A stretch of 60,974 nucleotides of DNA, counting the filler, from Basidiobolus ranarum (taxonomy: Eukaryota), in the NCBI GenBank assembly GCA_040143965.1. It is 10 parts of 10 records of this genome, joined end to end, with 100 filler letters (N's around TTAATTAATTAA, not from the genome) between each part and the next. Parts side by side here need not be neighbours in the genome. Positions count along the whole stretch, not along the records: positions 30,575 to 36,579 come from JASJQH010001439.1; 9 more parts are not named here. The stretch is one strand, 5' to 3'. Below the pieces are notes generated by a model. The model was given only the letters and a program-made list of their open reading frames with translations, had not been told where the DNA came from and ran no database searches. Below are positions 30,575 to 38,773 of this stretch, one piece after another; the first letter of the stretch is position 1, and each line of letters begins with the position of its first letter. A program made the translations under genes and the position numbers.

Positions 30575-30767
30575 CAGACAAACGGCTTGCCAAGAATCTT
30601 CAAGAGAAGTTTGGGAATGATAGTATATTAATACTTGGTAACTGGTCGTGACCAATACTACTGAGGCAACTACTGAAGTTTCTCCCCTTCGTCTTTGGAA
30701 TCGTGACATGGCTGCAACTTTAAGCTTTAGACATATCTTTTTTAGCTTGCGCTCAAATGCAGATTAA
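30575..30767 (+). pseudogene. Fanzor (eukaryotic TnpB-like) C-terminal remnant with an internal deletion
   Basis: DKRLAKNLQEKFGNDSILILGNWS* (30577-30651), then in another frame LRLWNRDMAATLSFRHIFFSLRSN; both resemble fungal Fanzor1 RuvC-region motifs. Confidence 0.75.
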
Positions 30768-30936
30768 AGGAACATCTCTCTGCTGGGTATCAAAGAAAGG
30801 GTATCTTGCCAGCTAGCAGCAGTCGGACAACGAAAAAAGTAAACAATCTGTGTGTTTATCGCAACACTAAACTTTTGATACAGAGTAAGTCTCAACACTT
30901 TTTCCTTTGCCATGTGTCTACAAAAAGAATTGTCAT

Positions 30937-31043
30937 TGTCTAATTTTTTTGTTCACTTGTCTTCAATTTTTTGCGATCGTCTCATTTATTTTATGAAATG
31001 TCTAATTTTTTTAATTCGTCTCATTTTAGATTACAACACTGTA
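30937..31043 (+). mobile_element. Tc1/mariner-type right end with subterminal repeats and a TA target site
   Basis: Ends ...CAACACTG|TA (TA|CAGTG on the other strand); TGTCTAATTTTTTT at 30937 and 30999, TCGTCTCATTT at 30977 and 31016. Confidence 0.7.
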
Positions 31044-31188
31044 AAACCTGAGTAAGCATTAAATGCAAACAGAAGATCACTGTGAAAGGAATCTGATTAA
31101 AGGTATCATTGGGTTTATTCTGAGTCTAGGGAGTCTTATTCTATAAAATAGGTTGTATATACAGGCTGAAAGCAAATCAGAACAGCTT

Positions 31189-32265
31189 TCACAATCCTTC
31201 TTTGGGGTGCATCCATCCGAATTTATCTTCGACTTCACCCTTTTGAATACCCCGGACAGTTTGATAAAGTCGGTTGAATCCAACATCTAATCCCTCCTTT
31301 TCGCTGGTGACGATAACCTTGGTACCACGAACAATGGTTTTGATAGGCGTAACTACTACGGCAGAACCACAGGCAACAATTTCCTGGAATTTATGGTCCT
31401 CGATTTCTTGAAAAGCGACTGGGCGCGTTTCAACATCCCATCCAAAAGACTTGGCAAGCTCACATAGGGATCGACGGGTAATGGACTGCAAAATAGAGGG
31501 TGAGTCCGGGGTAACCAAAGTACATTTCTCACCATTAGGATCATGAGTGATGGCCAAGAAATTGGAAGTAGCAAATTCCTCCACATAGGTATGGGTTTTT
31601 GCATCCAAAAACAAGGTAATGGGGAATCCTTGTTGGTGAGCCTCGATATTAGAATTAAGGCATGGGGCATAATTTCCACCCAGTTTAGCGGAACCAACCC
31701 CTTGGGGTGCTGTACGATCGAAATCATCGACAATCATTGCTGGTACAGGCTTGACACCTCCTTAATAGTAAGAACCTACGGGAACACAGAATACAATAAG
31801 TGTGTATTCTCCAGCTGGATTCATGCCTACTTGTGGTCCGGATCCAATGAGTAATGGGCGAATGTAAAGGGATCCGTCAGTTCCGTAAGGAGGAACATAA
31901 GCAATGTTTTCTTTAACTGCTCTTTCAACAGCTTCCACAAACAGCTCTACAGGTGGTGCTTCCATAGCCGAACATTTGGCAGAATGTTGCATGCGCTCGG
32001 CGTTAGCATGAGGGCGGAAGATACGTACCTTTCCATCTTTACCGTAGTAAGCTTTTAACCCTTCGAAACACTCCTGACCGTAATGAAGTACTGTAGCGGC
32101 AATATGAAGGGTGATATAAGGCTCGTATACAATTTCGCCTTCATTCCACTTTCCATCACGCCAAGTGTATTTCACATGGCACTTTGTAGGGCGATAGCCA
32201 AAACTTAAGTTGGCCCAGTCTAGATCAACGACGTCGTTAGTTTGGCTTTGTTGTTCAATAGTCAT
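31189..32265 (-). pseudogene. Branched-chain amino acid aminotransferase interrupted by one in-frame TAA (31762-31764)
   Basis: LHYGQECFEGLKAY, SLYIRP, KLGGNY (PLP lysine), EEFATSNF, ACGSAVVVTPI; the two ORFs share a frame: SYY*GGVKPVPAM. Confidence 0.9.
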
Positions 32266-33819: not shown

Positions 33820-35374
33820 CTTGATGGAGCTAAAACGTGATGCAACTGCAATCAATAATAAGTTTTGCTAACAAGATATTAGGTGGCGACGAAAAATCTA
33901 GGAACTAAAAGCACTCGACCGCTTTTGTTCAACTTTCAAATTCTACCCAGTTTTATTATCAAGGGGAATTTCAAGTTGGGCTCACTGTTAAACACGTCAC
34001 ATGGAATGTCTGAGAGCTCTAACGTACTGAAACGAATCTACCAACAGACCCTGTAACGTAGATGTTTGTTTTGATGCATGCTACATTGCCAGTTTGGAGT
34101 TCGAAACACGCACCGCACAAGATCCCCAATATTCTGGTATGTCCTTATCCACAGGGCTGTTCTGATCGTTTTGACTAATCCAATCGACAATATACCAGAA
34201 TTTAGTAATGGCCCTTAAAAATATTAGCCTGGACAGGGTCAGTTAGGGTCCTGGAAATCACATCTCGTGAAATAACAGTGCACTGTTTGTCGTTGTTTCT
34301 AGATGTTAAATTAAGCGCCTGCATCATACCCGAAGTCTGGGGAGTCTCTAGCCCCGTACATGTGCCATCATTGGTCGCTACGAAATGGGACTCAAGAAAA
34401 CTTTGAGTGTATGGTTATTTTACACCGTTACTTGCGATAAATATCCTTACAAAACACAATGCAATAACCAATCTCAGTGGAATCAGGAGGCCCTGGTTTC
34501 TAGGCTCAAATCGATTTCCATCGGTTTGGATGGTAATTGGTTTTACAAGTTCCTTAAACCGCTCGTATATGGTTTGCTACACCCAATTCAATCACAATAT
34601 TGTGACAAATGCAAATGAACCATTGAGACCAATATGCCCTGGAGATAGTCTCTCATGTCCACCTTAATTACCCTCTCGTACATCATTTAGGCCGTCTCAG
34701 GAACCTCAAGCTAATGTCACTAAACATTTTCATCAATAATCGGCCTGCGAACAACCCAAATAAATTACTCCAATAGAATATATCTATTTTCCAAAAACAA
34801 ACCGCACAATGTGAGATAATTTTGCTATTGAAATTAGAGAACACCCTATGTTCGTAAATTTAGTTCTTTCTGCTCACCAACCGTATGGACCTCTATTTAA
34901 TGTTAATCGATATGATCATAATTTCTTGACAATAAACCATTTTCGATGAGGGTTGTGGATGATTTCCATACATGCCTCCTTTGTATCTCGATTAGCGGCA
35001 TGCTCTATTGGATATTCCTAGCATTAAGGATGTACTTTCCAATCGTCCCAAATACCGTTGTGGCTAATTTAGGTAGAATGCAACCGCATGGAAATCTTCA
35101 GATTATGAATATTGTCATTTAAGATGTTACTCCTCTCTAGGTTAAAGGAGAGATGTTCAATATAAAACCAAGGATGTTCATACGAATTTTCTCATAACCT
35201 CTTTGCATCAACGTGTTTATCTATCCTTCACACATAAACGCTTCAACAAGAAATCCACGTCGAAACCTTGTAATCTATTTACGGATATCTTAGGTCACTA
35301 CCAAAATACCAACAAAAGGATAGTCATTCTAGATTCGATCTTCGTCAAGCCTCGTAATACAAAAGCTTTTAAAA

Positions 35375-36579
35375 ATGATTTTTACTGCTAAATTGAAGAT
35401 CTCCGCTTTATTATTAATTTTGCCATTTGGAATATGGTCGCAATCCTGCGGGAAGGTAGCACAACGTCGAGAAGTGCGCTCATTAAGTGTAACCGAGTTG
35501 CAGGCTTTTATCAAAGCAGTTCAAGACCTCCATACAGGTCCTGCTCCAACCAAATATGATGAACTCGCCAACATACATGCAACATATTTTAGTGAAGCTC
35601 ATAACAATGCAGCTTTCTTTCCGTGGCATCGTAAGTTTATCAAAGATTTCGAATTGGCTTTGCAAAAGCAAAACCCTAATGTTCAACTACCTTATTGGGT
35701 GAGTACAGAATTTTCTCTTCAAAACCCTTCAGTATCAGAGTTTCTAACTTTTCTCTTCAACAATTAGGATTGGAGTTTGGATTCACAATCGCCCGCAGAG
35801 AGTGGGATATTTTCCTCAGACTTTTTCGGTGGTAATGGCGACTCCAGCAATAATTATTGTCTAACGGATGGTCCGTTTGCGGGTTGGACCATGAACTATC
35901 CTGACGTTCATTGTCTCAAACGACAATTTGATGGAACTGACCCTAATACAATTGAGCCATTTTACTCCCCAGAGGCCTTAAAATACGTTACCAGTAGATC
36001 TAAGAGTTACGCCACTTTACACCGGAATATTGAATCGCCACCTCACGGGGTAGTTCACGTTGGAATTGGTGGCGATCAAGGAGATATGGCCTTTGCTACC
36101 AGCACTAATGAGTAGGTTTTATATATTTAATTATCCAGAAAAAAGATGTAAACCAACGATATGATTTTCAATTATAGTCCCTTATTCTGGCTACATCATG
36201 CGTTCATAGATAAAATTTGGGCTGATTGGCAACGCTCAAATCCTACTAAATCCAGTGACTATGGTGGGAATGGGCCTAGAAATACCAAAGCGGCTCTTGG
36301 CGATATCATGATCCCCTTTAATATCACTGTAAAGTCCATGTTAGACACTACCAAAGCAGGCCTTTGTTACCAGTATGCTCCGTCACCATCTACAAATATC
36401 GTATCACCCTTACGCAAGCGTTCGGGGAATAATAGTACAACCACCATACCTCCAAGTGACCAGAAAGAAAGCGCTACTGACTATTGGTACAAACTCCAGT
36501 TACCTAAGCCATTACCTGAAGCCTATATTCACATGATGGGTATGAGTGTTCCGCAGGGTAGATCAATCGAGAAGGATTG
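35375..36579 (+). CDS. Secreted tyrosinase (di-copper), 3'-truncated; introns 35699-35767 and 36112-36177
   Basis: Signal peptide, RREVRSL, CuA H...AHNNAAFFPWHR, LPYW|DWSLD, CuB PHGVVH...DPLFWLHHAFID. Confidence 0.95.
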
Positions 36580-36709: not shown

Positions 36710-37079
36710 TCATGAGCCTAGTATGGTTATGAGTTTACCTTTAATCGTATTAGCTTTAGCAAGTATACTTATCCCCAGAGGTGCCCCCAAGATCCACTTC
36801 AATTTCTCCAACTCCCAGAGCTTCAAGTGGCCAGTCATCTCCCATATAAACATTCTTGTTTGTATCAGTTTTGAGTGTCTTAAACCAGTTTTTTTAATTA
36901 GAGAAATGCTGAGAGGCTCCAGAATCAATATACCACAAGCTAGAGTCTTGTTCAGAGGTCACTGATAGGGCAGAAACAAATAAAACATCCTCTTTGGTAG
37001 AAACCTGATTTGCTTGTTCTGACTTTGCATTTTGTTGTAATTTCTTGATTTGCAATCTTTTATCTTGTGTCCTAACTAA
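36710..37079 (-). mobile_element. Copia aspartic protease remnant
   Basis: WYIDSGASQHF followed by an in-frame stop, then VYMGDD...ALGVGEI. Confidence 0.8.
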
Positions 37080-37330
37080 CACTGGATTTGTGTTCAGAAC
37101 ATCTGTGGGAGTAAAATGAGCAATCTTTGGGGCAATTTGGACAAGTTTGAAATTTCTAATATGGAACTGCTAACTCTCACATTATTCACATATATATATA
37201 TAATATATTTTCCAATTTTCAGCTAAGTGATATTTGACTAAGTAATGTTTACTAACTTATATATTATATATGAAATAGTTAGGTGTATAAAGATAGAGAT
37301 TACAAATATGATAAAGACAATAAACTTCAA
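37080..37330 (-). repeat. ~250-nt dispersed repeat with a CACTG end; inverted copy at 58868-59114
   Basis: Reverse complement aligns across its full length with the contig-10 copy. Confidence 0.8.
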
Positions 37331-38773
37331 TAGATACTTCTACTGGTAGCAGTACTCTTGTTGCTTACAAGTTGCAGATACTTTTACTGGTTTTTTACTG
37401 TAATTTGGCACAATCTAAGAACTTTTGCACATTGTCTAAGGCTATCCATATCGGCTATTTGCCAAGTTCAGTGCAATTCTAAATCTCAGATGCTCAGCAA
37501 CTTGTCCACCATTAGTTTGATTGCAAAGTTTATTGATATTGTTGAGAAAAGTCTGATCTGTCTTATATGTGCAATCATAGAGACTAAATACAAGATACCT
37601 GTATTTTAGAATCTCATTAAGGCTGGAATACAAAGGCTAAATTATCTCAAAAAAGGCATTCATATTAATTCAAACTCATATAGCAGTAAACCCTGTAATC
37701 TGCCATTTGAATACCAGTTTTTTCTAAAATATTTTTGAAAATTGAATAATCAATGCTTAATATTGAGGAACAAAATTTTGTTTTGTACAATAATGAATCT
37801 CTTACAACTCTCTTCTGTTCCACATTGAAAATATTTTGATTTTGTAAAGTTTCTTATATATACTGACAAAGAAGTGATTCTTTTTTTTTGTAAGTTAAAT
37901 GCAGCAACTTAAAGACAGTGCACAAATAGGTACAACTATTATCAGGATTATTTCCAAAGTGTCTCTCATATCCATTCATATCTTTGGTGTAAAACATTTG
38001 TTAAATATGTCCTTAAAAGTTGCTTTAGTGAAAGATATATTTTCTGGGAACATCTTTAAGCTTCCAGTAATAAACATATAGCTTGGCTGAAGATTTGTAA
38101 TGGAATACTAGTCATTTTTTTAGAAAGAATGATTACCCCCACATTTCACACTACAAAAGCAGACAAATAAGGCCTAAATAACTTCTTCATCCCACATGTG
38201 TGTAGGCCCATTAGAATATTGGAGTAACCTCTTATCAACAGTGCATTCAATATCTGGGTGACTTCATTAGCTCTTGGATTTCAAACAGATATCTTCAAAT
38301 ACTTGATATTTGGAGTTTCAAGTAGGCTATAAGCAACTTTGCCATACAGTTAGCTCCTCTATCCAAAAGACTTCAAAAGCACATCCAGAATTTGTGATAT
38401 ATTCAGCTGGCAGCTAACCTTTTGCTGGCTAAAGATGTATCTTTGTCAACTAGCTTAGTTTCAGGTTCAATGGCAGCAAGAATCCATTGATCACTTCTCT
38501 GATTGTGAGTGGTCTATCTATTGCTGTGGGTGCACATGCTGATATTGTGGACAGCTGTTCCTGTAGTAGTTTGAGACATATCTTGATTATTCTTGACAGC
38601 TTGGCTGACCTGACTCTTGCTGGCAGCCATATCATCCTTCTGGCAAATCTTGCTAAGATTATGCTCCATTTTGGCAGGGGGAAGTTGACAAGGCTTGCCA
38701 TCTTTTGTTGCATTATTCTCATTGGTTGGGCTGAAAATATTTGGATAATGCAAAAATGAGTAAGTCTCTTGAA

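Follow-up and report, generated by a model that had tools for sequence, protein, structure and literature searches.

A degenerate ROr-3-like Fanzor1 transposon end beside a Basidiobolus-type host gene

The sixth contig of the window opens with what is very probably the right-hand 29% of a dead, mariner-type transposon of the transposase-less ROr-3 family, carrying a Fanzor1 nuclease gene as cargo (30575-31041); this reading comes from comparison of the sequence with published elements and proteins. The window, here meaning the whole 60,974-nt stretch of DNA that was analysed, is made up of ten contigs of 6022 to 5993 nt in falling order, separated by spacers of the form N44-TTAATTAATTAA-N44. 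The sixth contig spans 30575-36579 (6005 nt) and opens inside the transposon copy; of the two element ends the window contains one, and the left terminal inverted repeat (TIR) with its TA falls outside the contig, as does the remainder of the ORF. The initial annotation had described the region as a Fanzor remnant inside a Tc1/mariner-type end with a candidate omega-RNA interval, and its interpretation is supported wherever it could be checked. The element is of an already known kind, the ROr-3 family having been published in 2013, and the copy itself is an ordinary fossil of a nuclease type that has already been solved and assayed, so it adds nothing on mechanism. The one point worth pursuing is the mismatch between host and element.

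In intact relatives, a Tc1/mariner transposase acting in trans would cut and paste the element at TA, probably by binding six GTCT-containing sites in each 133-bp inverted end. Fanzor1, a TnpB-derived RuvC nuclease, would bind an omega-RNA whose coding sequence lies immediately 3' of the ORF, and would cut DNA that matches the guide; such omega-RNA-guided cutting has been demonstrated for PpFz1 and SpuFz1, not for the ROr-3 family. In the window copy the nuclease gene is destroyed: with a 311-nt deletion went the RuvC-II Glu, the intron and the TNB domain with its zinc finger, and a 22-nt deletion and lesser changes spread the remaining coding sequence over three frames. The counterpart of the omega-RNA scaffold has lost ~27 nt and most of its first stem. 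Preservation is good in the 3' inverted end and at the flanking TA, so a matching transposase could still mobilise the copy, provided that the left end outside the contig is intact; no nuclease could be made from it.

Table 1. Features of the element copy and the adjacent host gene (positions along the window)
Feature	Position	Strand	Basis
3' part of degenerate ROr-3-like Fanzor1 transposon	30575..31041	+	hand alignment to consensus; 5' side cut by contig start
Fanzor1 coding fragment 1, 24 codons, ends in G[DN]WS motif of RuvC region, TGA next	30577..30648	+	9cf0 match; 22/24 vs P0003
Internal deletion junction	30648..30649	+	311 nt lost by hand count: 82 codons + 1 nt + only intron
Fanzor1 coding fragment 2, second frame, contains WNRD; TAA at 30762-30764	30651..30761	+	22/32 vs P0003
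Fanzor1 coding fragment 3, third frame, Lys/Ser-rich C-terminal tail	30758..30850	+	15/32 vs P0003, pairwise E 4e-5
Second deletion junction	30759..30760	+	22 nt by hand count; another frame shift
Positional counterpart of Fanzor1 omega-RNA scaffold (candidate)	30850..30899	+	by eye vs PpFz1 omega-RNA, ROr-1/ROr-3
Weak 5-bp stem around TATCGC/TTATCG loop, then GATACAGAGTAAGTCTCAACAC	30852-30867	+	30852-56 with 30863-67, -3.3 kcal/mol
3' long TIR, 126 nt vs 133 in consensus, ends CACTG	30916..31041	+	hand alignment
TIR GTCT motifs, n=6	30916, 30938, 30959, 30979, 31000, 31018	+	all at places matching consensus TIR
CACTG element end	31037-31041	+	same terminus as ROr-3 consensus
TA beside element end, right half of expected target-site duplication (TSD)	31042..31043	+	family TSD = TA
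Branched-chain amino acid aminotransferase, host gene; stop 147 nt from element end	31192..32265	-	protein comparison

The coding remnant and the damage to the nuclease gene

Two peptides had been read in the initial annotation, DKRLAKNLQEKFGNDSILILGNWS at the contig start and LWNRDMAATLSFRHI in another frame. The former is read at 30577-30648 and is followed by TGA, as claimed, and the latter is present at 30693-30737. When peptide 1 was compared with all solved-structure chains, its sole match was the Parasitella parasitica Fanzor1 (9cf0, E 6.4e-5), to which it aligned at residues 1111-1134 in the numbering of the MBP fusion. The second Fanzor1 piece matched residues 1217-1243 of the same chain (E 0.022) and no other entry of the PDB set; the two window peptides are colinear on 9cf0, with ~82 residues absent between them. 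A read-through of the window sequence, with an X placed at both frame breaks, matched three proteins among 8 candidates from a large protein set (E 1.2e-14 to 7.1e-14), all three from Rhizopus arrhizus/delemar. That these are true Fanzor1 proteins follows from the alignments of one Rhizopus protein, P0004, to PpFz1 (E 1.6e-140) and to SpuFz1 (E 3e-50). The peptide comparison proposed at the outset thus bears out the Fanzor assignment, both in the PDB match and against Rhizopus Fanzor1 (E ~1e-14).

On the R. delemar Fanzor1 protein P0003, the three coding fragments of Table 1 align to residues 361-384, 473-504 and 511-542, and the ancestral stop of the ORF has been lost in the third of them. 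The Asp of RuvC-III is kept: the WNRD at 30696-30707 aligns, by way of P0004, with D606 of SpuFz1 (position 1000 of the 8gkh chain), the residue at the third catalytic position, for which D606A and D606N were assayed for cleavage according to PMC11423790. The position of the catalytic RuvC-I Asp falls upstream of the contig start at 30575. None of the three window translations tested gave a Pfam family; the full Rhizopus proteins gave none at E 0.01 and, at E 10, just a sub-threshold TNB trace, which in P0003 is PF07282 (TNB domain) at residues 403-434 with an E of 0.036, below the cut-off.

The 82 residues 385-466 of P0003 have no counterpart in the window. This absent segment holds LLDEFRTSS with the RuvC-II Glu as well as the CPSC...C..C zinc finger, which confirms that, as annotated, the copy has neither the catalytic Glu nor the zinc-finger segment. 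In the hand alignment to the ROr-3 consensus, the 311-nt deletion consists of 247 coding nt and a 64-nt intron, and the lost residues and the frame shift therefore share one cause. As the RuvC-II Glu is absent, we file the copy as a Fanzor1 pseudogene, judging it to be descended from Fanzor1 and not a working member. The description of the copy as deleted and non-autonomous needs two adjustments: the internal deletion stands, but the missing N-terminal two thirds reflect the contig break and not an observed deletion; and while non-autonomous holds, the term fits intact copies too, since the whole ROr-3 family is without a transposase.

Self-BLAST of 30576-31100 found no second copy of the element in the window, and tblastn of P0003 and P0004 found no further Fanzor piece there. 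A weak tblastn match at 36816-36890 (E 0.11-0.44) was dropped, as it lies in a copia-like region. At the start of the seventh contig, 36894-37169 (-) holds an open frame with ...YIDSGASQHF..., which we take to resemble a copia-type retrotransposon protease motif. On the contig of the Fanzor remnant itself, 35333-36579 (+) carries several pieces of a tyrosinase-like gene; its nearest Atlas clusters carry PF00264 (best score 0.88, a lead only). The end of the fifth contig (30130-30474) is repetitive and of low complexity, and looks like a Gly/Asn-rich repeat coded on the - strand.

Family membership and the element end

ROr-3 is a Fanzor1 element of Rhizopus oryzae 99-880 described by Bao and Jurka in 2013 (PMC3627910). 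Additional file 1 of that paper gives it a length of 2862 bp, 16 copies, both termini known, a 133-bp TIR and a 2-bp TA TSD; its Fanzor is entered in the paper with 720 aa and 2 exons, and no transposase is listed. The consensus in Additional file 2 was compared with the window by eye and by hand count, in place of an alignment tool. By this hand alignment, 30575-31041 is colinear with the last 838 nt of the 2862-bp consensus. Identity is 66/74 upstream of the large deletion (30575-30648), 88/111 in 30649-30759 (counting one ambiguous consensus letter as a match), 64/90 in 30758-30847 (excluding a 6-nt gap), and 111/123 in the inverted end at 30916-31041, to which 13 gap positions are to be added; the hand-counted total is 329/398, or 83%. 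A further ~27 nt of the consensus are absent near 30891-30893 in the same alignment. In the 470-kb file of all Fanzor elements from 2013, the 17-nt word at 31017-31033 has a single exact occurrence, 8 nt before the 3' terminus of ROr-3.

The six GTCT motifs of the inverted end (Table 1) reappear in the 5' end of ROr-3 as GAGAC/TAGAC, and by eye most differences between the window TIR and that of ROr-3 fall between the motifs, not in them. This pattern would fit repeated protein-binding sites, and we infer that the motifs may be transposase sites. The initial annotation had counted about five repeats of the form GTCT.A.TTT; the repeats are real, but just three in the region are exact, the other two being near-matches. 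Across the window, the exact pattern GTCTNANTTT occurs five times on both strands against 3.92 expected, three of the five at 30938-31027. The GTCT core, with 315 occurrences in the window, is found seven times in the 140 nt of 30889-31018, its densest cluster on either strand. Tandem Repeats Finder reported no array in the repeat region.

The heptamer CACTGTA is found nine times in the window on both strands, so taken alone it is weak evidence for an element end. The published ROr-3 consensus has the same ...CACTG terminus, which confirms CACTG as the element end, with TA next to it as annotated; of the family termini CAGTG...CACTG, the window holds the 3' one. For the comparison with other copies we used this consensus, which besides ending in ...CACTG has 133-bp TIRs and TA duplications.

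The candidate omega-RNA interval

As signs of an omega-RNA, the initial annotation had offered two short hairpins. The arms are there: TAAACA (30840-45) and TGTTTA (30853-58) are complementary, and TTGATAC (30875-81) and GTCTCAA (30889-95) pair at 6 of 7 positions. Neither goes beyond chance. The first hairpin (30836-30862) has a folding energy of -3.3 kcal/mol and a z of -1.81, equalled by 14 of 200 shuffles, and the second is not predicted to form in 30870-30900. Being no better than chance and, by eye, not conserved in ROr-3, the hairpins are not supported as signs of an omega-RNA. Longer intervals likewise fold no better than shuffles, with z at +0.66 for 30833-30899, +0.71 for 30900-31041, +1.01 for 30833-31041 and +0.81 for 30826-30905. 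An Rfam search of 30575-31200 returned 7 matches at E up to 10, all far under the gathering scores, and an ARAGORN scan returned no tRNA.

The shortest scaffold known is that of PpFz1, described in PMC11423790: its first stem-loop has 7 bp, its second 4 bp, and the guide begins at nucleotide 50. By eye, the stretch past the stop codon of ROr-1 in the 2013 file is nearly identical to this scaffold, and ROr-3 and the window share its plan: a stem with a loop of the TTA(T/C)CG type, then ..CAG.GTAAG.. and CAACA(T/C). By-eye comparison of these four sequences shows stems that differ in sequence among PpFz1/ROr-1, ROr-3 and the window and yet pair, a hint that the hairpin may be conserved. In the window, the weak 5-bp stem of Table 1 and the annotated first hairpin are mutually exclusive, with pair probabilities of ~0.1-0.27 each. 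The pattern GTAAGN{0,4}CAACA occurs twice in the window against 0.85 expected, and the other match, at 37359, is in an unrelated region. Thermodynamics, Rfam and covariation lend the resemblance no support. We regard 30850-30899 as nothing beyond a fair positional candidate for the omega-RNA scaffold, and consider it unlikely that the copy yields a working guide RNA. The word CAACACT is also seen three times in 180 nt (30862, 30893 and 31034, +), with 20 occurrences in the window on both strands; the second of the three closes the scaffold-like stretch, and the third is the element terminus.

The SpuFz1 RNA starts at the stop codon, crosses the 30-nt right repeat and reaches into the flank, according to PMC10432273. 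By eye, the scaffold-like stretch of ROr-1, ROr-3 and the window stops ~140-155 nt short of the element end, ahead of the long inverted end. This leaves two options: a natural RNA far longer than that of PpFz1, or a guide made of element sequence, as would follow from a scaffold-like stretch that stops ~140 nt inside the element. We speculate, as a weaker reading, that in elements with long TIRs the guide may be a fixed element sequence at the inner edge of the TIR, so that the nuclease would recognise relatives of the element and not the host flank. The position of the scaffold-like stretch raises the question of what the guides of long-TIR Fanzor1 elements read.

The initial annotation had also suggested that the copy may still supply a guide RNA. 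It would then be a working 'ghost' whose omega-RNA and guide serve Fanzor1 proteins encoded at other places in the genome. For Spizellomyces, PMC10432273 describes 'ghost' loci that have no ORF but carry omega-RNA-like ends, and both the by-eye resemblance of ~30850-30899 to the PpFz1 scaffold (stem, TTATCG-like loop, ..CAG.GTAAG..CAACA(C/T)) and the twofold presence of the GTAAGN{0,4}CAACA pattern would be in line with this. We nonetheless consider it improbable. The first stem has just five weak pairs, at -3.3 kcal/mol and in competition with the annotated hairpin; the ~27 nt of consensus sequence missing from the hand alignment, the folding z of +0.66 to +1.01 and the lack of an Rfam match at threshold all speak against a functional RNA; there is no intact Fanzor gene in the window; and a guide directly after the scaffold-like stretch would be element, not flank, sequence.

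Host gene, origin of the element and known systems

The gene next to the element (Table 1) is Basidiobolus-like: over its full length the aminotransferase is 77.7% identical to that of Basidiobolus meristosporus and 79.1% to that of B. ranarum, compared with 51.0-53.4% for Backusella, Mucor and Phycomyces. A single in-frame TAA is seen at 31762-31764, at a position occupied by Q, K or T in the proteins of Basidiobolus and Mucor; the gene is otherwise one open, intronless frame of 358 codons. The TAA marks either a pseudogene copy or a sequencing error.

The element has other affinities. At E up to 1e-10, 279 of the 7999 candidates scored belong to the P0003 family; in the best 120 of the 279, the named relatives belong to Mucorales, Umbelopsis, Syncephalis and Coemansia, and none is named Basidiobolus. 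Identities were taken over 61 alignment columns covering fragments 1 and 2, with 43 of 121 relatives spanning both motifs; fragment 3, which MAFFT placed in the deleted region, was left out of both the identity table and the tree. On this basis the best identity of the window remnant is 77% to R. delemar proteins, 61% to R. microsporus, 46% to Coemansia and 43% to Syncephalis, while P0003, itself from R. delemar, reaches 66% at best with R. microsporus proteins. In a quick maximum-likelihood tree, the remnant falls within a group of R. delemar, R. arrhizus, R. microsporus and Gilbertella, with an SH-aLRT of 94 (not starred) and a remnant row that fills 33% of the columns.

An element with 83% DNA identity to its Rhizopus relative, including the non-coding end, sits beside a host enzyme that is half diverged between the same lineages. 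Vertical descent cannot account for this mismatch, and horizontal transfer is its simplest reading. We lean towards the view that a mariner-type ROr-3 transposon with its Fanzor1 cargo moved, either directly or via an intermediate, between Mucorales and a fungus close to Basidiobolus, which belong to different phyla, and then decayed. Horizontal transfer of Tc1/mariner elements is reported to be frequent in fungi, common in Mucoromycotina and sometimes to bridge >700 My (10.1101/2025.06.16.659975), and the transfer proposed here would fit this heavy traffic as reported there. Basidiobolus genomes are described as transposon-rich in PMC5751038. No paper in the literature that we searched names both Basidiobolus and Fanzor. 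If the transfer is real, it would give a definite example of an RNA-guided nuclease gene crossing fungal phyla on a mariner-type vehicle.

The same mismatch would arise if the element were Rhizopus DNA, from a contaminant or a mixed culture, that was misassembled onto a Basidiobolus-like gene. The contig is short (6005 nt) and begins inside a repeat, and the absence of Basidiobolus names among the best 120 of the 279 P0003 relatives would agree with such an origin, as would the hand-counted ~83% identity to the Rhizopus oryzae consensus, given that old copies within Rhizopus would look alike. The misassembly would, however, need to have broken the sequence exactly at a canonical element end with its TA, as a true insertion gives. 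There is also no evident sequence common to both halves that could have misled an assembler, and the window contains no other pieces of Rhizopus-like elements. We consider this explanation quite improbable.

As for the carrier, the annotated Tc1/mariner-type end stands with respect to the terminus and the TA, while the superfamily call is still made without a transposase: none is listed for ROr-3, so that the Tc1/mariner assignment follows from the TA and the ends alone. Numerous short repeats in subterminal position are characteristic of hAT, CACTA and Mutator elements and not of Tc1/mariner, which counts for a hAT-like carrier. A carrier from another superfamily that combines CAG.G/C.CTG ends with many subterminal repeats, hAT for example, would also suit the lack of an encoded transposase in ROr-3 and the finding in PMC10530073 that Fanzors are most often associated with hAT ends, but we set such a carrier aside as very improbable, since the 2013 table gives ROr-3 a 2-bp TA duplication, as it does for ROr-1 and ROr-2, which carry mariner transposases in the same genome (PMC3627910), and since TA adjoins the element end in the window.

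Among known systems, ROr-3 is the closest to the mariner-type copy in the window. The two share the 3' terminus CACTG beside TA, a long inverted end with six GTCT motifs, and the C-terminal coding sequence of Fanzor1 with its tail, at ~83% DNA identity by hand count. Unlike ROr-3, the window copy has deletions of 311, 22 and ~27 nt, is spread over three frames, has a TIR of 126 instead of 133 nt, and lies in a Basidiobolus-like and not a Rhizopus genome, with its first 2 kb outside the contig.

With PpFz1 (PDB 9cf0-9cf3; PMC11423790) the copy shares homologous segments of the RuvC region. The omega-RNA scaffold of PpFz1 follows immediately on the ORF, and by eye the window resembles both its first stem-loop and its ..GTAAG..CAACA.. 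tail. As a nuclease PpFz1 is active, with D-E-D triad and TNB domain both intact; its scaffold is 49 nt long and the first stem has 7 bp. The window copy has neither Glu nor TNB domain, and its stem has degenerated. By eye, PpFz1 is nearer to the ROr-1 type than to ROr-3.

For Spu-1 of Spizellomyces, Saito et al. 2023 (PMC10432273) describe degenerate or ORF-less copies that keep their inverted ends as common beside full-length ones, which is similar to the situation of the window copy. Spu-1 differs in having 30-nt inverted repeats, with the scaffold running through the right repeat to the flank; the end of the window element measures 126-133 nt, and its scaffold-like stretch stops earlier.

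In bacteria, P0003 aligned to 7 loci in bacterial and archaeal contigs (L001-L007), with 27-35% identity over ~70-88 residues; these loci come from Bacteroidales/Rikenellaceae MAGs, match residues 245-342 of the Rhizopus Fanzor1 and are presumably TnpB-like; they are distant relatives and give no help with the element ends. The bacterial TnpB of IS200/IS605 and IS607 is the ancestral RuvC nuclease, and the layout D...E...zinc finger...RD is shared with it (PMC3627910). The carriers differ: bacterial TnpB travels on single-strand (Y1) or serine-recombinase elements, whereas the window element is of a TA-inserting kind with long inverted ends.
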